A DNA stretch of 64,000 bases from Puniceicoccales bacterium. Lineage in GTDB: Bacteria > Verrucomicrobiota > Verrucomicrobiia > Opitutales > UBA9783. The stretch is taken from contig JAISBA010000002.1 in assembly GCA_031266455.1 (NCBI GenBank), positions 1,937 through 65,936 on the forward strand. Reading direction: 5' to 3'. Each line of letters opens with the position of its first letter. Position 1 is the stretch's first letter. The position numbers were made by a program, and so were the translations under genes. Below, in pieces: positions 44,716 through 53,843 of this stretch. Under the pieces are notes generated by a model that was given only the letters and a program-made list of their open reading frames with translations, did not search any database and was not told the origin of the DNA.

Positions 44716-44835
44716 TACTTCGTTTTACAATACGTCGTCGAGGTTTTACGCCCCCCGTAAACTTGTTGGCCATAATGCTTGACCTAGGGCCGTGTAAAAT
44801 TTACAAATTTGTTCTCAAAACTTATTGGCTGTCGA

Positions 44836-46074
44836 ATGGTTATGAAAAAAGGAGGCGCGCATGCGTATTTCATTTGGGCAATCGGGTCCTTATTCTATTT
44901 ATACGAATATTTTGTACGCGTTGTACCGAGTGTCATGGAAGGTGATTTGGAGCTTGCGTTTGGCGCCAATGCAACGCAAATAGCGACGGCGGTAGGTATG
45001 TATTTGATGGCTTATTCGCCCATGCAGCTGGTCGTGGGCCCATTATTTGACGTTTTTGGGACGCGCAAATTGTTGGTACCGGCCAGTCTTATTTTAACGT
45101 TGAGCTGCTTATTACCTTTGGTCCCAAGTGACCATCTGGTTTACTTTGGACTCGGTAGATTCCTAATGGGTTTTTCTTCGGCCTTTGGGTTTGTCGGCGT
45201 GATGTATTTGTGTACCCTTTGGTTCCCCGCCAAACGCTTGGCAATGTTGTCAGGACTCACAACAGCTTTAGGTATGCTGGGAGCTATTACGGCCCAAACG
45301 TGTCTATCGTCTCTTAATGAGCAATTGGGTTGGCATTCAACGTGGTATTTATCGGTAGCTTTTGGTATTTTTGTAACATGCTTGCTAATGTTTTGCATTC
45401 CCAAACATCCAGATTGGTTGCCCAAGCCTAGGGGTAAACACATTTGGATTTCCTGTAAAAATAATTTGATACAAGTATTTAAAAGCAAACAAACCTGGCT
45501 GATTGGATTTTTAGCCAGTGCATTATTCATGCCATTGGCCGTGTTTGCCGATTTTTGGGCCATACCTTATTTTGTGAATGTTTCTCATTTTACCAGCAGA
45601 CAAGCCGTACAGTTAACGGCATTATTATATTTGGGATGGACATTGGGATCCCCTTTTGTGGGATGGCTTTCCGATAGATTTCAAACGCGAAAAATTCCTC
45701 TGTTCGTCAGCGGCCTACTGAGTAGTTTTGTCTTTACCTGGATTATTTGCATTCCCGGGGCACAGTTTTTTACAATTGCGTTTCTATTGTTTATTTTGGG
45801 ACTTTGTTCCAGCGGCGAGGTGGTCAGTTTTATCGCTTGTGTAGAACTGAATACAAAGCAAGCAAGCGGTAGTTCGATTGCCGTGATCAATATGATCGTT
45901 ATGTGGTTATGCGGCTTTGTACAAACGCTTACGGGATATCTGATCGATTTATTTAAGCCTTGTTACGATTTGCAGCAAACGTATCAGCTATCCCTATGCG
46001 TTATAGCTTTGTCCTTAATTTTAGGAACCCTTCTCTTTGGTCTGTTTGCCAAAGAGAAGAGTCGAATGCAATAG
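44836..46074 (+). CDS. MFS transporter
   Basis: Twelve hydrophobic segments with an MFS loop motif (DVFGTRKLL). The start is set at the first ATG because the listed ORF begins at a TTG. Confidence 0.7.
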   Translation: MVMKKGGAHAYFIWAIGSLFYLYEYFVRVVPSVMEGDLELAFGANATQIATAVGMYLMAYSPMQLVVGPLFDVFGTRKLLVPASLILTLSCLLPLVPSDHLVYFGLGRFLMGFSSAFGFVGVMYLCTLWFPAKRLAMLSGLTTALGMLGAITAQTCLSSLNEQLGWHSTWYLSVAFGIFVTCLLMFCIPKHPDWLPKPRGKHIWISCKNNLIQVFKSKQTWLIGFLASALFMPLAVFADFWAIPYFVNVSHFTSRQAVQLTALLYLGWTLGSPFVGWLSDRFQTRKIPLFVSGLLSSFVFTWIICIPGAQFFTIAFLLFILGLCSSGEVVSFIACVELNTKQASGSSIAVINMIVMWLCGFVQTLTGYLIDLFKPCYDLQQTYQLSLCVIALSLILGTLLFGLFAKEKSRMQ

Positions 46075-46207
46075 GTACCGCATTCAATGCGATATGCTGT
46101 GGGATACGGGTACGACAAAAGCAAAGATAGACTTGTTTAGGTTCACAAAAGCACATACATCCTACCGACAACCCGGTAAGATAAAATTTTATTCTAAGCC
46201 CAATTTA

Positions 46208-47131
46208 TTAAAATCGGAATTCCGTTTGGGAATTCGGCAAAGTTTGATGAACACGATACCGTTCGCAGGTCCTTTTGCTTAAGGCCGTTAAATTGAGTTC
46301 GTTAAAAACACGTATGAGTTCGGTGGGATTAGGTTGTATTTGCTGTGCGTTAAAAATATCCACATTATCAATTAAATCTTCCGCATAATCCAATTGGGCC
46401 AACTGTTGATTTCTTGCAAGAAGATTTTTTGCTTCCATCAGACGGTCGCGAAATCGTTCGGGTTTTATGCAGTCGATGTTAGTAAGTATCGCGTTGATAG
46501 ACGTATACTGCCGTAACCAACGAATGGCAGTTTTCGACCCTACGCCGCAAACACCTTCGAAGTTATCGGCAGCGTCCCCCATAAGTGCCAAGTAATCAAC
46601 CACCTGGTTAGGCCAGATTCCCATTCTTTCGTATACACCCTTTGTATCCAGTAATTTCCAGCCTTGTTGCGTAGGTATAAGTTGATGTACACGTTCGTTA
46701 ACGCACTGCATTAAGTCTTTGTCAGCACTTACAATAACCGCTTTACCATGATTTTGAGAAATCTTTTGAGACAATGTCCCCAATAGATCATCTGCTTCCA
46801 CGCCCATTTTTTCAAGCACATGTCCGCCCAAATGTGGAATAAGCTGTTTTATGAAGGGCAATTGCTGCTTAAATGCTTCTGGGGTGGCCATTCGATTTGC
46901 CTTGTAAACGGGCAAAAGTTGTGTACGTCGAATCGATCGACTGCAGTCAAAAAAAATCCATAAATGAGTGTATTGAATCCACTGTTCAAGCAACCATAGC
47001 GTATTGATGAACCCGTAAATTGCGTTTACAGGCAGCGTACTTGCGTTTGATAAATGTTTAACACCGTAGAAACATCTGAAAGCCAAATTGGTTCCATCAA
47101 TCAATAGATGATCGGTTGCATACACTCGCAT
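46208..47131 (-). CDS. 5'-3' exonuclease (Pol I N-terminal / FEN-like, stand-alone)
   Basis: LLIDGTNLAFRCFYG, YKANR, EADDLLGTL, VSADKDLMQ and the H3TH region GVCGVGSKTA. Confidence 0.85.
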   Translation of the reverse strand: MRVYATDHLLIDGTNLAFRCFYGVKHLSNASTLPVNAIYGFINTLWLLEQWIQYTHLWIFFDCSRSIRRTQLLPVYKANRMATPEAFKQQLPFIKQLIPHLGGHVLEKMGVEADDLLGTLSQKISQNHGKAVIVSADKDLMQCVNERVHQLIPTQQGWKLLDTKGVYERMGIWPNQVVDYLALMGDAADNFEGVCGVGSKTAIRWLRQYTSINAILTNIDCIKPERFRDRLMEAKNLLARNQQLAQLDYAEDLIDNVDIFNAQQIQPNPTELIRVFNELNLTALSKRTCERYRVHQTLPNSQTEFRF

Positions 47132-47218
47132 AAAACTGAGTATGGCAAAAGAAAAAGTAAAGGTTTAAAATTTTTATGTTGTTTTTTTGTATCAATATTT
47201 GTATTATAAGGACTAGCT

Positions 47219-48979
47219 ATGCAAATGAAATACGTAATCTTTCCCTGGTTAATAGGGGTATGCTTTTCTAATATGTGTCCTGGAACTTCGCATCCATCTT
47301 ATGCAAGAGCAATGCCCGTTCAGCCTTTTCAACCTACTGAAACTTCTCTTGCAGATAATCTTGCAGATAGTTTTCGTTCCACCTCGGCGCCACTCGTTCA
47401 ACAACGATCGGGAAGACGCAACATAAGTCCATTGATGGATGGCGAAATGTGTCAAATATTGGCTTATTTAAACAACAAGGCTTACGATAATTCAAAGCGA
47501 CTTGCGGAAGGTTTGTATATATTCCGAAATGCTACTTCTCCCGCCAGTTCATGGCTTAGCCAAGTCGGTGTTGTTTCAAAAGAACCGTTTATTGGAATAC
47601 ACGGTGTTGATGAAAATCAAGAAAAAGATTATCCTGGATTTCTAGCTTACCGCGTTCAAGAAAAGCCGGGAGAAGGGAAACATATTGACCTATTTGTTAC
47701 ACTTCGTGGATCTCAAGGAGAAGACTTTCAAGCATTAGGTGGATATGGAGGTGCCAGTTAGCTTACCAATTTTGATGCTGCTAAGTTAATTGACTTGGGG
47801 GCTGAATTTGGAATTCCAGATAAATATTTTACACCCGGAGATGCAAGGAAACTCAGTTTGCATCAAGGCTATGCAAGAAAGTTCATATCTTTTAAGCCAA
47901 ATTTGAGGCATCGCTTGATGGAATTGTTGCATGAAGATTTAAAGATAGTTCCATTCGATATATTGGCAGAGGGTTTTTCGGACAAAGACAGAAATTTAAG
48001 AGGTCTCGCTCTCAAGTCGCATGTGGATCATGTACGTAAATGTACATACCAAATATATTGCACGGGGCATAGCCAAGGAGGAGGTGTTGCGCAGGTTACT
48101 GTAGCCTATTTGACAACCCTCCTGGGTGAATACCTGTATGGGCCGAATTTTGACAATAAAGAATTCAACTCGGTTTACGGTGTTTTTATATCTCCAGCGC
48201 GTGCTTGGGGTAATAAAAGTACGCGCGCCGTTTACGAAAATGTTGTTGGGGTAAATAATATGATAGGGTATAGTAGTGTCATGGACATTGTAACATGCAT
48301 GCCGTTAGGGCACAACATTGAAAAAGACAAAGCTAATGCTACGATGCTCAGTGTTGGGAAACACATTCTAAGGGGACTTGCTCCCTTTTTTACCCCTCCC
48401 TATAATGAGTTGGTAAAACTGATTTGTAACAGCGAGAATAGCTACGAAACGTTAACACATTGGTGCTTTGAGGATCCTGTCCGCGTTTTTACGGAGTATT
48501 GCAAATCAAATATCGCAACCATCAACCTATTTGTAGGAGATGTAAAGGCGGGAAAATTGGTAGTAGATAACGAAGCACCGTATGTAAAATCTCTATTGGA
48601 GGTGCGAAAAAAATTCAAAGATTTTTTTAACAATAAAAGACAAGCAGAAGAGTTAAGGACGCTCATCAAAGAGGTACAAGAAGCATATTTTTTCGCCCAC
48701 AAAGATGGTTTTTTATTTGTCAGGACAAAGCGTAATTTTCATGCTCTTAAGGCAATAGCAAAACTAAAAAAGGTCATCGAAATATGCATGGGCCCAGAAC
48801 ATTTTATCGCTTCACAGCACTTGGGGGCGTACGCCTACAATCATGTTTTGGCGGATGATGGGCTGATTAAAACGAATTTGGGTCCATTTTTTAATGCTCA
48901 GCTATTATCCTTTGATTTGCAACGAGGTGCCGAAGATGCCGACATCTATTTCGCAAAGAAAGAAAGTATGACCAAGTAG
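47219..48979 (+). pseudogene. class 3 lipase-like alpha/beta hydrolase, interrupted by one in-frame TAG (47759-47761)
   Basis: The two listed ORFs (47219-47761 and 47795-48979) share one frame and together are collinear with the intact paralog at 49329-51215. The stop corresponds to a Trp codon in the paralog (GASWLTN versus GAS*LTN). Lipase_3-type motifs FVTLRGSQG, HQGYA and CTGHSQGGGVAQ are present. Confidence 0.7.
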
Positions 48980-48991
48980 TGAAGTGAACCC

Positions 48992-49203
48992 TAAAAGCAG
49001 GTTTCTTTGACAAGAGTTATACTAACAAACATTGGCTTAGGAATTAAACTAAAATACTCAAATGTAATCGTCATACGATAGGTTTTGTGTATTGGTTTAC
49101 AAACGTACGAGTTATATAAGAGATGGAGTATCTTCATTCGCGTCTTTGGCAATTGATTTTTACACATTAATAAATATCCGTACTGCAAAAAACTTAGGTA
49201 GGT
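48992..49203. repeat. 212-bp non-coding repeat, copy A (3' flank of lipase-like gene A)
   Basis: About 92% identical (16 mismatches by hand alignment) to 51229-51440. Identity includes perfect blocks of 51 nt and 39 nt. Confidence 0.85.
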
Positions 49204-49328
49204 ACACAAACCATCATTGAGTGTTCTGTAAAGCTTACAAGATATGATTTCCCTTTTGAAAATCAACTAGAGGTTATGGATGCAAGTACACTATTTTTGG
49301 CATTAAAAATGCTCTTTAAGCTAATTAT

Positions 49329-51215
49329 ATGAGATACACTATCTTGCATTTGTTAATATTTGTAAACTTTTTATGCACGTGCTTGGGAACTATAAATCCA
49401 TTTAAAGAGAGTAATGTTGAATATTTTTCAGAACCGGAAGTTCCTATCGACCCTGTTTTTGGTGAGAAAACATCGGTATGGAAAGATTCAGATCAAAATG
49501 TTTTTTCACCTAGTTTGTATGAGGAACGTACAAATAAAAAATCTGCCATAATTGTTGATAAGACTAACGAACGTAAGAGTAACTTTCTTTCCAAATCGGA
49601 ACCACTTATTCAACAAAAATTGGGGAAGAGTATTGTAAGCTCATTGGCAGACAAAGGGATATGTCAAATATTAGCTTACTTAAATGCTAAAGCTTACGGC
49701 AACACAAAACGGTTGTCGGAAGATCAGTTCGTATTTGGTGGGGATTTGTACGGGATAAAAGGGGAAGATACTTCTCCGGCTAGCCAATGGTTAATAGAAA
49801 AAGGAATTATTGCACAAGAACCATTTGTTGGACTGCATGGTGCAGGTAAAAATAAGGAATTAGATTATCCTGGTTTTGTATCCTACCGCATCCATGAAAA
49901 GTCGGATGGATGGAAACATGTGGAAATATTTGTTACATTTCGAGGATCTCAAGGAGAAGATTTTCAGGCATTAGGTGGGCTTGTAGGTGCCAGTTGGTTG
50001 ACCAATTTAGATGCCGATAAATTACAATTAAGTGGAGTCGAATTAGGGATTTCTGATAAATATTTTACCCCTAATGGTGATAAACAACTTAAGGGACATC
50101 AAGGCTACGCGCAAAAATTTATGTCTTTTAAGTCAAGTTTTAGTAATCACTTGGTGAAGTTGTTTAAGAACGATTTGAATCTGGTTGATTACAATGCGTT
50201 GTTAGATCATTTTTCAGATAAAGATAAAAGTTTAAAAGGTGTCGCACTTAAGTCGCGCGTAGATAGTGAACGTAAATGTACATTTCAAGTATATTGTACG
50301 GGACACAGTCAAGGAGGTGGAGTTGCGCAGATTTCTATAGCATTTTTAACGATATATATAGGTGAGTATTTGTATGGCCCTAATTTTGACAATAAAGACT
50401 TTAACCTGGTTTACGGTATTTTTATGTCTCCTGCACGTGCCTGGGGTGATGAACGTACACGTCTTGTTTATGAAAGCGTTGTTGGAGTAAATAATATGGT
50501 AGGGTATAGCACCGTTATGGATCTTGTAACGTGTCTTCCGTTAGGCCACAATATTGAAAAGGATAAAGGTAAGGTCGTATTTCTTAGTATTGGAAAACAT
50601 ATTTTAAGTGGAATTGCTGGACTGTTAGGGAACCCTTATTCTGATTTAATAAAATTAATTTGTAAAAGTGAAAATAGCTACGAAACATTAATCCATTGGG
50701 CTTTTGAGGATCCCGTAGGTATTTTCTCAAAGTACTGTAGGTTGAATATTGAAAAGATTGATGCTTTTGTAAAAGATGTAAAGGCTAAGAAAATTGTTGT
50801 AAATGATGAAACAAAATACGTAAAATCTCTGTTGGAAGAGAAAAAGAATTTCGAAAATTTCATCGGTAATCCAAAAAATGTAAGCAGTTTGAATACGCTT
50901 ATCAAAGAGACCCAAGAGGAGTATTTTTACGCCCATAGAGAAGGTGGTTTGTTTGTCACGATAAGGCGTGATTATCATGCTTTGAGAGCCGTAAAACGAC
51001 TGATTGAGGCTGTTAAAATGTGTGGCAGTCCTGTAGATTTCATTGCTTCGCAGCACTTTGGTGTGTATACCTGCAACCGTTCTTTGGAAAAAAATGAGGT
51101 AATTACAACAAACCTAGGTCAATATTTTAATCCTGAGATTTTGTCTTTTGATTTACAGCAATGTGCCGAACGTGCTGATGCTTACTATGAAAAGAAAAAC
51201 CGTCTAGTTAAATAA
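49329..51215 (+). CDS. secreted class 3 lipase-like alpha/beta hydrolase
   Basis: Signal peptide MRYTILHLLIFVNFLCTCLG. Lipase_3-type motifs FVTFRGSQG, HQGYA and the nucleophile elbow CTGHSQGGGVAQ. Confidence 0.75.
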   Translation: MRYTILHLLIFVNFLCTCLGTINPFKESNVEYFSEPEVPIDPVFGEKTSVWKDSDQNVFSPSLYEERTNKKSAIIVDKTNERKSNFLSKSEPLIQQKLGKSIVSSLADKGICQILAYLNAKAYGNTKRLSEDQFVFGGDLYGIKGEDTSPASQWLIEKGIIAQEPFVGLHGAGKNKELDYPGFVSYRIHEKSDGWKHVEIFVTFRGSQGEDFQALGGLVGASWLTNLDADKLQLSGVELGISDKYFTPNGDKQLKGHQGYAQKFMSFKSSFSNHLVKLFKNDLNLVDYNALLDHFSDKDKSLKGVALKSRVDSERKCTFQVYCTGHSQGGGVAQISIAFLTIYIGEYLYGPNFDNKDFNLVYGIFMSPARAWGDERTRLVYESVVGVNNMVGYSTVMDLVTCLPLGHNIEKDKGKVVFLSIGKHILSGIAGLLGNPYSDLIKLICKSENSYETLIHWAFEDPVGIFSKYCRLNIEKIDAFVKDVKAKKIVVNDETKYVKSLLEEKKNFENFIGNPKNVSSLNTLIKETQEEYFYAHREGGLFVTIRRDYHALRAVKRLIEAVKMCGSPVDFIASQHFGVYTCNRSLEKNEVITTNLGQYFNPEILSFDLQQCAERADAYYEKKNRLVK

Positions 51216-51228
51216 CTAGACAAATCCG

Positions 51229-51440
51229 TAAAAGCAGATTTCTTTGACAAGAGTTATACCAACAAATATTGGCTTAGGAATTAAACTAAAATACTCAAAT
51301 GTAATCGTTCTATGATAGATTCTGTGTATTGGTTTACAAACGTACGAGTTATATAAGAGATGGAGTATCTTCATTCACGTCTTTGGTAATGGGTGTTTAC
51401 ACATTAATAAATATCCGTACTTCAAAAAACTTACATAGGT
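51229..51440. repeat. 212-bp non-coding repeat, copy B (3' flank of lipase-like gene B)
   Basis: See copy A. It holds the same position relative to the stop codon of its lipase gene. Confidence 0.85.
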
Positions 51441-51535
51441 CATTTTTTCATCTTGTGCAAATCGCCATCTTGATTTGAAAATTTTGTTTCGTTTTACCTT
51501 GCTTGGATGGGCCATTTTTCATATATCAAGAAAAT

Positions 51536-51898
51536 ATGCAGGAAGTGCAAGAACGCTTGTTGACGGTTGTGAATCAAATCAAAGAAAAATATCCTTTGTA
51601 TGGGAGACGAGCTTATTTTTTTATTTACGAAGTCGTAGGATTTACGGGCAAAAAATTACAATTATCCGATAAACAACATATTACGGCTGAAAATTTTTTA
51701 AAAGGTTTTCGTGATTTAACCAAAGAATCTTTTGGACCTATGGCAATGGATGTTTTGAAGTCGTGGAATGTACAAAATTGTGAAGACATTGGACGTATCG
51801 TAAGTCATTTCGTTGAATTTAACGTATTACGTAAGGAATCATCCGATTCTTTTGACGATTTTACCCGTTACCAATTTGATTTCAATCAGGTATTTTAG
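51536..51898 (+). CDS. Minf_1886-family protein (PVC-superphylum conserved hypothetical)
   Basis: Y....AY.F....V.FT.........HI.....L.G.RD....FGPMA..VL..W.....EDIG.IV...VE...L.....DS.DDF matches my recollection of this family. The start is set at the first ATG. Confidence 0.6.
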   Translation: MQEVQERLLTVVNQIKEKYPLYGRRAYFFIYEVVGFTGKKLQLSDKQHITAENFLKGFRDLTKESFGPMAMDVLKSWNVQNCEDIGRIVSHFVEFNVLRKESSDSFDDFTRYQFDFNQVF

Positions 51899-51899
51899 T

Positions 51900-52538
51900 A
51901 TGCTAAATATCCATGCTTACACCTTTGGTCCTTACGAAAATTGCGTGTACGTGATGTATGCCAACGTAAAAAAAGTAGCCGTTATCATAGATGCCGCTTC
52001 CGGTAGTTTTGATGGATTAAAAAAATGCCTGGCAGACCATGAAATTCATCTATTTTTGACGCATGGGCATTGGGATCACATGTGCGAAGCGGCTAAGTTT
52101 CAACGCGAGCTAAAAGCGGTTGTATACGCTCATAAAGCGGACCAGGACTGGTTTACAACGGAACAATCTAAATATGCACCTCCCGGCATTTTTTTTGAAA
52201 CAATTGCTCCTGATGTCTGGGTAGAGCATGGGCAAATGATTCAATGTAGTGACTTGGTTATTAAAGTATTGCACACACCCGGGCATACGCTTGGGCAAAT
52301 TGCGTTGTACATGGAATCTCTAGGCAGCGTATTTGTGGGAGATACTTTGTTTCGTCGCACCGTAGGTAGGACTGATTTGCCGGGTGGAAATTTTGATCAA
52401 TTGAAAGACTCCGTTCGGCGCATTTTGTACACTTTACCCGAAGATACGGTTGTTTATCCGGGTCACGGTGAAAAGACGAGCATAGGCGCTGAGCAAAAGC
52501 ATAACCCTATCGTTCCTTTGGGTGAAAATTCTCTTTAG
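51900..52538 (+). CDS. MBL-fold metallo-hydrolase (glyoxalase II-like)
   Basis: THGHWDH metal motif, HTPGHT, and GDTLF....GRTDLPGG. The start is at the internal ATG one nucleotide after the upstream stop. Confidence 0.85.
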   Translation: MLNIHAYTFGPYENCVYVMYANVKKVAVIIDAASGSFDGLKKCLADHEIHLFLTHGHWDHMCEAAKFQRELKAVVYAHKADQDWFTTEQSKYAPPGIFFETIAPDVWVEHGQMIQCSDLVIKVLHTPGHTLGQIALYMESLGSVFVGDTLFRRTVGRTDLPGGNFDQLKDSVRRILYTLPEDTVVYPGHGEKTSIGAEQKHNPIVPLGENSL

Positions 52539-52727
52539 ATAGCACTTTTGTCTTTTCTACTAGAGAAAAGTAGGCATGCGTATGACACTTATGGATATAC
52601 GCAAGAAGTAAGCGATGCAGCATTTAGGTTTACCTGCATTAAAATTTGAAGATTCACGGTGAAAATTTTTGCAAATAAACGTTGAGAGTACTTGCCATTT
52701 ACTGTTTAACAGATGAGTCTTAGGCGT

Positions 52728-53843
52728 ATGCAAATTTTTGTTCCGGGAGAGAAACAAGAAGAAACTCGGGTGGCGGTAACCCCCGACACGGTGGAAAAGT
52801 TCAAAAAATTAGGCATTGAGGTTTGTGTCGAAGAGGGTATAGGTGAGGCAAGTTTTTACTCGGATGAAGCTTACCGTTTGGCAGGTGCATGCGTTGTTCT
52901 CAATGAGCACCGCCTCGGACAATTAGAACACACCGATTGCATTTTGCACGTTTTGCCTTTGGATGAAACCTGCTTACTGCACGTTAAGGAGAATGCCTGG
53001 CATATCAGCTTTTTTGATGCTTTTCACTACGCATCTCTGCTGGATTCGTTTAAACAACGTAAACTCAACGTCGTTAGTTTGGAACGTATCCCAAGAATCT
53101 CTTTGGCGCAAAAAATGGATGCATTGAGTTCACAGTCAAGTTTAGCGGGATACGTGGCGGTTATTCAAGGAGCAAGTCATTTGATGCGCACGTTACCCAT
53201 GATGGTTACACCGGCAGGAACTTTACAGGCCGTACGCGTTTTTGTCATCGGCGCAGGGGTTGCCGGGTTGCAGGCGATTGCAACGGCTAAGCGTTTGGGG
53301 GCTCGCGTGGAAGCTTTTGATACGCGCCCTGAAGTGGAGGAGCAAGTCCATTCTTTGGGGGCAAAATTTTTGAAAATCGATCTGGGTAAAACGGAAAGTA
53401 CCTCCCAAGGATACGCAAAAGCTTTAACGGAAGAACAGTTGAACCATCAGCGTCAGTGGATGGCGCGTACGTGTTCGCATGCGGATATGGTAATCACAAC
53501 GGCGAAGGTTTTTGGACGTAAGGCACCCCTTATTTTAACGCAATCCATCATCGATCAAATGCATGCCGGCAGCGTGATCGTTGATTTAGCGGTCGAAACG
53601 GGAGGCAATACGGAAGGATTGATTCCGGGCAAAAATATCATGTCCAAAAAAGGTGTCTTTATTTTAGGCGAGGGGTATTGGGAACGTAAGGTGGCAACGG
53701 CCGCAAGCCAAATGCTTGCCGCCAATCTTTACGCTTTTGTGGAACATTTTTGGTCATCGGAAACAAAGTTTTTAAAAAGTGATACGGAAGATGATATTTT
53801 AAAAAGTTGCATGTGCATAAAAGCGGGAGAAGTACGTTTTTAA
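52728..53843 (+). CDS. pntA: NAD(P) transhydrogenase alpha subunit, dI domain (PntAA-like) / alanine dehydrogenase family
   Basis: MQIFVPGEKQEETRVA..P, SLAGY.AV and the Rossmann motif VFVIGAGVAGLQAIATAKRLGA.V.AFDTR. No membrane dII or dIII genes are adjacent. Confidence 0.75.
   Translation: MQIFVPGEKQEETRVAVTPDTVEKFKKLGIEVCVEEGIGEASFYSDEAYRLAGACVVLNEHRLGQLEHTDCILHVLPLDETCLLHVKENAWHISFFDAFHYASLLDSFKQRKLNVVSLERIPRISLAQKMDALSSQSSLAGYVAVIQGASHLMRTLPMMVTPAGTLQAVRVFVIGAGVAGLQAIATAKRLGARVEAFDTRPEVEEQVHSLGAKFLKIDLGKTESTSQGYAKALTEEQLNHQRQWMARTCSHADMVITTAKVFGRKAPLILTQSIIDQMHAGSVIVDLAVETGGNTEGLIPGKNIMSKKGVFILGEGYWERKVATAASQMLAANLYAFVEHFWSSETKFLKSDTEDDILKSCMCIKAGEVRF

Follow-up and report, generated by a model that had tools for sequence, protein, structure and literature searches.

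The window, a stretch of 64,000 nucleotides, belongs to a Puniceicoccales MAG of ~1.02 Mb in 24 contigs (G000), which we compared with its relatives G001 to G005 and JAIRSW010000011 (hereafter JAIRSW). Across the genus, the locus studied here has a common gene order: an MFS transporter, a 5'-3' exonuclease on the minus strand, one or more lipase-like genes, a spacer, a gene of the Minf_1886 family, a metallo-beta-lactamase-fold (MBL) gene, and AlaDH/PNT. In G000 two lipase-like genes, c1 and c2, are present, each followed by a copy of a 212-nt spacer segment, E. The features of the locus are the following:

46208..47131, minus strand: gene for a 5'-3' exonuclease, which is the neighbour on the upstream side and anchors the synteny
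47132..47218, plus strand: spacer between the exonuclease gene and c1, a shortened form of the ancestral upstream spacer that is common to the G001 gene lipB
47219..48979, plus strand: lipase-like gene c1, whose product has a signal peptide and the nucleophile-elbow motif GHSQGG; the gene clusters with the second lipase gene of G001
48992..49203, no strand assigned: E1, first copy of the 212-nt spacer segment, starting 13 nt past the c1 stop
49187..49203, no strand assigned: junction J2, the tail of E1 (AAAAAACTTAGGTAGGT), similar to the E2 tail as well as to the motif that opens the exonuclease-to-lipase spacer of relatives
49204..49328, plus strand: spacer Y, upstream of c2, an orthologue of the exonuclease-to-lipase spacer of single-copy genomes (77-85% identity)
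49329..51215, plus strand: lipase-like gene c2, intact, 628 aa, with 67-75% amino-acid identity to the exonuclease-adjacent lipases of relatives
51229..51440, no strand assigned: E2, second copy of the segment, between c2 and the Minf_1886-family gene, in the syntenic (ancestral) location
51441..51502, plus strand: upstream region of the Minf_1886-family gene, 77-92% identical and kept in all members of the genus including G001
51503..51898, plus strand: gene for a Minf_1886-family protein (TIGR04138), the downstream neighbour, with 88-92% amino-acid identity in the genus

The products of c1 and c2 seem best named lipase-like rather than lipases, because the match of c1 to the Pfam family Lipase_3 (PF01764) reaches 17.8 bits, below the gathering score (cut-off 22), and the GHSQGG nucleophile-elbow motif alone is visible; c2 has no Pfam match, and neither gene has a match among NCBIfam families or PDB sequences. 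Both the lipase-like genes and their orthologues evolve fast, with dN of 0.14-0.25 versus 0.03-0.11 in the neighbouring genes, and dN/dS of ~0.15-0.42 versus ~0.1, a pattern that would fit relaxed or diversifying selection on secreted proteins (e.g. effectors). Elsewhere the genome has a third such paralog, a distant one (G000:C10:156206-157015), with ~30-40% identity over two segments; it is present in every member of the genus, and has no E spacer.

Two further observations concern the genes themselves. The frame of c1 contains an in-frame TAG at 47759-47761, at a codon that is TGG in c2 and in all orthologues (GAS*LTN versus GASWLTN), and the remainder of its 586-codon frame is intact despite this TAG. 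It would stem from a nonsense mutation that arose very recently or else from an error of base calling, and codon reassignment is unlikely because c1's own stop is also TAG. In c2, a perfect 9-bp inverted repeat (GTCTAGTTA/TAACTAGAC) spans the stop codon at 51202-51221 and scores as a terminator-like structure on the minus strand; it is probably fortuitous, since it has no counterpart in c1 or in any relative.

We found that E1 and E2 align without gaps over their whole length, with 16 mismatches in 212 positions (92.5% identity, 0 indels), in agreement with the gap-free flanking duplicate of ~92% identity described in the original prediction. The perfect blocks reported there are also present, but their true lengths are slightly greater than the 51 and 39 nt given, namely 54 nt for the block that starts at 49086 and 41 nt for the one at 49031. 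The borders are sharp: outside the edges of E1 and E2, identity drops to 10-50% per 20-nt window within ~15 nt on both sides. The offset from stop codon to start of E is 13 nt for both genes, and the left edge of E coincides with the end of the 13 paralog-specific nucleotides that follow the stop.

The adjoining coding sequences had been said to be more diverged than the flank, and this is borne out by the alignment of the two genes: the c1 and c2 proteins share 52% amino-acid identity, and their codon alignment has 68% nucleotide, 55% third-position, and ~42% synonymous-site identity (pS 0.58, dS 1.13). The flank, at 92.5%, is thus well above the synonymous sites of the coding sequence, and the refuting outcome that the original prediction had named for this comparison did not occur. 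With the coding identity of 0.68 as background, 196 or more matches in 212 positions have a binomial tail of 1e-17. No rise in identity toward the 3' end was found along c1 and c2. A tract at 92.5% next to coding sequence at 68% (nucleotide) and 42% (synonymous sites), with sharp boundaries, is what a recombinational copy displays.

Apart from E1 and E2, no copy of E was detected in G000 by either a BLAST-type search or an nhmmer profile search. Among 20 other genomes of the family, G002, G003, and G004 have one copy each, as does JAIRSW, a further MAG that was found via a protein-database search with c1. Each of these single copies sits between one c2-type lipase gene and the Minf_1886-family gene, and E2 is taken as the syntenic, ancestral copy because this position is shared by the single copies of four species. 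A metagenome scan with the neighbouring Minf_1886-family protein returned no close relatives.

The orthologous copies are 76-81% identical to E1/E2 in aligned columns, with 24-40 gapped columns. For the same genome pairs, identity is 76-82% in the MBL-AlaDH spacer, 77-85% in the exonuclease-lipase spacer (Y), and 62-78% in the MFS-exonuclease spacer, so that the conservation of E between species equals the ordinary spacer background. Synonymous divergence of the neighbouring genes ranges from 0.41 to 0.96, and their synonymous-site identity (45-68%) is below the aligned-column identity of E (77-81%); the other spacers show the same excess of aligned-column over synonymous-site identity. One run of 12 nt, TCAAATGTAATC, is invariant in all six E sequences and may be a candidate small binding site. 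As a separate observation, dS to G003/G004 is 0.82-0.96 to the left of the lipase locus (MFS and exonuclease; 44809-47131) and 0.46-0.54 to its right (Minf_1886-family, MBL, and AlaDH; 51503-53840). This ~2x contrast may be due to codon constraints that differ between the two sides, or to recombination with a breakpoint at the lipase locus.

Two members of the genus depart from this arrangement. G001 has all the flanking genes and two lipase genes, lipA and lipB. The first of them is followed by just the first ~38 nt of E; after the second comes a stretch of ~205 nt, X, which looks unrelated, and then the conserved upstream region of the next gene. No match to X was found elsewhere in the family, and against E it is weakly alignable (global z 2.5-3.1). 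In G005, the most distant member, the lipase gene is separated from the Minf_1886-family gene by a 569-aa gene that is read from the opposite strand (2379-4088 of L046, G005:C5:39000-49000). Its family is represented in the window's genome by five or six paralogs, which are found on contigs C18, C10, C12, C21, C3, and C4, with 30-34% identity over full-length matches and 48-53% for a short fragment on C4.

The genes and their flanks have very different ages. In a maximum-likelihood tree, c1 pairs with the second lipase of G001 (lipB) with support 95/98, and c2 is placed among those of the species with one copy. A sister relationship of c1 and c2 is rejected by AU tests (p=1.7e-4), as is one of G001 lipA and lipB (p=5e-9). 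Moreover, the dS between c1 and G001 lipB (0.59) equals that of the neighbouring genes between G000 and G001 (0.41-0.66), and c1 and lipB have in common the shortened upstream spacer, the N-terminal signal sequence, and the 13 nt past the stop. Because of the tree, the AU tests, and this agreement in dS, the duplication of the lipase-like gene is older than these species.

By contrast, E1 and E2 differ by 7.5% without any gap, versus 76-79% identity and 24-40 gap columns between E2 and its orthologues. Expressed as Jukes-Cantor (JC) distances, this is 0.08 for E1-E2 versus 0.22-0.27 for the orthologous flanks, i.e. ~3x less divergence. Flanks held by selection since the gene duplication should have diverged at least as much as the orthologous flanks (~20%, with many indels). 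Because E1 and E2 differ by 7.5% without indel, versus ~20% in orthologues, their common ancestor is much younger than that of c1 and c2, its age being roughly one third of that of the split from the sister species, and their high identity points to recent copying, not to purifying selection.

The differences between the two copies can also be given a direction. With four outgroups, 14 of the 16 could be polarised: 10 are derived in E2, 4 in E1, and the remaining 2 are ambiguous. All 14 polarised changes fall at sites that are invariant in the four other species, and for this reason both copies are taken to be drifting, the syntenic E2 no more slowly than E1. The divergence of E looks neutral.

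The right edge of E1 tells how the copy is joined to its surroundings. The sequence immediately to its right is Y (49204-49328), i.e. the orthologue of the spacer that stands between the exonuclease and the lipase gene in single-copy genomes. The last ~17 nt of E1 are similar to the E2 tail on the one hand and, on the other, to the motif located before Y in relatives (CAAAAATCTTAGGTAA in JAIRSW, for instance), with 16 of 18 positions matching the E2 tail and 12-13 of 18 matching the upstream motif of relatives. Since the tail of E1 is joined to an orthologue of the upstream spacer, J2 is a head-to-tail duplication junction lying in a short imperfect direct repeat (~17-20 nt), and this repeat brackets the unit formed by Y, the lipase gene, and E.

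A different junction is present in G001. At J1, the first ~38 nt of E are joined, within a TAGCCAAG microhomology, to exonuclease-proximal spacer, which is followed by a c1-type gene. The order of the paralogs is also opposite, c1 then c2 in G000 and c2-like then c1-like in G001 (4231-8041 of L042, G001:C8:33000-44000). Because paralog order and junctions (J1 versus J2) differ between the two genomes, the lipase locus has been rearranged more than once at short repeats. We tried array rotation, an ancient tandem plus conversion, and allelic cassettes joined independently as models of this history; with none of them did we arrive at both arrangements, starting from a single ancestor, by fewer than ~3 events.

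Several other explanations of the repeat have to be weighed against recent copying. One of the options raised originally was that E is a functional RNA or DNA element. It might for instance be a 3'UTR-derived sRNA, a processing or termination signal of the lipase mRNAs, or an operator, kept near-identical by selection. We consider this unlikely, and equally so a version in which a 3'-flank RNA module (such as an sRNA or an mRNA-processing element), common to two effector-like lipase genes of ancient divergence, is kept identical by selection together with gene conversion and the copies of sister species are its fast-evolving orthologues. The equal offset of E1 and E2, 13 nt past the stop of each paralog, is what such a module would display, as is the run of 12 nt that never varies among the six sequences. 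In the centre of E, an imperfect hairpin of ~60 nt can also be drawn, in which 95% of cells pair across species and which reaches z -2.2 in E1; in E2, however, it falls short of significance (z -0.75 and -0.36), and other folds are predicted in G004 and JAIRSW. The folding energy of the whole of E does not differ significantly from that of shuffled sequences (z +0.12 and -0.50 for the plus and minus strands, respectively). RNAalifold gives covariation terms of +0.53 and -1.13 kcal/mol for the six homologues, which amount to ~5 independent lineages and thus provide low power; by pair counting, on the same ~5 lineages, one pair has double changes, and the covariation score (0.237) is reached by 199 of 500 shuffles. 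No match was obtained with Rfam 15 (cmscan of 46000-53000, both strands, E<=1). Promoter and terminator scans of E yield fewer sites than shuffles and none that is conserved, the sole terminator-like hairpin nearby being the one at the c2 stop, on the minus strand. A functional element is further contradicted by conservation between species at the level of other spacers, with many indels, by G001, which has both genes without a recognisable E, and by the 10 changes that E2 has gained at sites invariant in four other species. Nor did the originally proposed search for more copies, when run on the genome and its relatives, favour it: there are two only in the window's genome and one in each relative with E.

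It is still less probable that the tandem is an artefact of assembly, in which two strains that occur together were merged, one with c1 and the other with c2 at a single locus, so that E1 and E2 would be strain variants. The genome is indeed a MAG in 24 contigs, the c1 and c2 cassettes lie between like flanks, and a difference of 7.5% would fit closely related strains or species. However, the passage from E1 to Y resembles the alternative path, imperfectly, over only ~17 nt, far below an assembler k-mer, Y is without the first ~20 nt expected at a branch point, and the independently assembled G001 also has both gene types in tandem; the imperfect shared bases and this independent tandem pair are what make a chimera unlikely. 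Comparably improbable, or slightly more so, is an origin of E as a small mobile element (MITE-like) or as the decayed relic of a lost gene or of an rRNA fragment. In its favour one may cite the discrete, sharp-edged segment, the 569-aa opposite-strand gene at the position of E in G005, and a 15-bit nhmmer match (E=0.005) of the six-sequence E profile to a segment of 23S rRNA (G000:C13:34934-35074), which outscores 30 column-shuffled controls and reversed controls. Yet E has no terminal inverted repeats or target duplications, its only two copies are both homology-placed behind paralogs, its descent in four species is vertical and syntenic, and it has no match in plasmid and phage collections. 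As for the candidate relics, tblastn of the G005 protein against E gives noise only, and the 23S rRNA match does not survive the omission of any single lineage and fails in pairwise tests for five of the six sequences (G004 being the exception); we treat it as chance. Least credible of all is a small protein encoded on the minus strand of E (MKILHLLYNSYV... or MTITFEYFSL...). Recomputation agrees with the original prediction that all three plus-strand frames are closed and that minus-strand frames of 48 and 52 codons are open in the two copies, and the shorter MTITFEYFSL frame recurs in E1, G004, G003, and JAIRSW. However, each of the nine differences between E1 and E2 in the frame either changes an amino acid or affects the stop. 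E2 has lost the start codon of the MTITFEY frame, JAIRSW has no MKIL start, and in G002 and G003 the frame is cut short by a deletion of 7-10 nt. By codon position, 7, 12, and 13 of 28 columns are variable, without any excess at the third position. With start loss, frameshifting deletions, no coding pattern of substitution, and small ORFs unconserved on both strands, we reject a protein-coding gene, as was rightly done before.

The explanation that we prefer, with a probability of roughly 0.7, is that E was copied recently and passively, by recombination between non-allelic sites or by gene conversion, in the tandem pair of lipase-like genes. This had been the other option of the original prediction, and it is supported by genes older than the species, flanks 3x less diverged, and a duplication junction; the accompanying remark that either explanation would be unusual was overstated, since recombination between tandem paralogs is commonplace. 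According to this recent-copy explanation, E would be a non-coding spacer of the ordinary kind, situated between the Minf_1886-family gene and a lipase-like gene that evolves fast and whose product is probably secreted, and we infer that it has no function of its own beyond that of any 3' spacer. Its two copies would have arisen because the tandem lipase array recombined at short imperfect repeats, the end of E1 being the tail of this spacer joined head-to-tail to the spacer that is normally upstream of a lipase gene. The genes c1 and c2 are old paralogs, whose split preceded that of the sister species, and the spacer copies are far younger.

As for the order of the recombination events, which we infer from the arrangements in G000 and G001, three routes might be envisaged. 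An ancient c1-c2 tandem may have had an X-like flank behind c1 that was lately overwritten from E2 by conversion or template switching. Alternatively, a c2-c1 array may have been re-duplicated recently at J2 and then have undergone two short-homology deletions, or two old allelic cassettes may have been joined independently. Under all three routes E is a passive passenger. What speaks against the preferred explanation is that no single simple event gives both the G000 (c1-c2, J2) and the G001 (c2-like/c1-like, J1) arrangements; in addition, conversion across a flank that has diverged beyond recognition lacks homology, and would need either continuous concerted evolution or template switching at short homologies.

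The repeat that seems more conserved than the genes would therefore represent a dating artefact of recombination in a tandem array, rather than a new RNA or regulatory element. Such a duplication of E is nothing out of the ordinary, and has little importance outside this locus. A modest by-product is that the fast-evolving lipase-like genes of these reduced Puniceicoccales genomes appear to lie in a rearrangement-prone site bounded by short repeats, a site at which two species have the paralogs in opposite order.

Known systems offer partial parallels to the locus. By its position just past a stop codon, its length of ~200 nt, and its repetition behind both paralogs, E recalls 3'UTR-derived sRNAs and conserved 3'UTR elements, but differs from both in having no terminator-like 3' end, no Rfam family, and no conservation above the spacer background. 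Another likeness may be found in bacterial gene conversion and concerted evolution between tandem or dispersed paralogs, of which tufA/tufB and the rRNA operons are examples: there too, a tract is too similar for the age of the duplication, has sharp boundaries, and is unchanged in function. However, in tufA/tufB and the rRNA operons the genes themselves are homogenised, whereas here this concerns the non-coding 3' flank alone and the coding regions escaped. Tandem duplication and deletion at short imperfect direct repeats proceed by RecA-independent or short-homology recombination, and the present locus resembles them in that the right edge of E1 lies in a repeat of ~17-20 nt that also flanks the single-copy unit of relatives, and in that the different junction of G001 lies in the TAGCCAAG microhomology. 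In contrast to a simple tandem duplication, the genes at this locus are not equally young, so that at least one further event (replacement, deletion, or conversion) would be needed to account for it.
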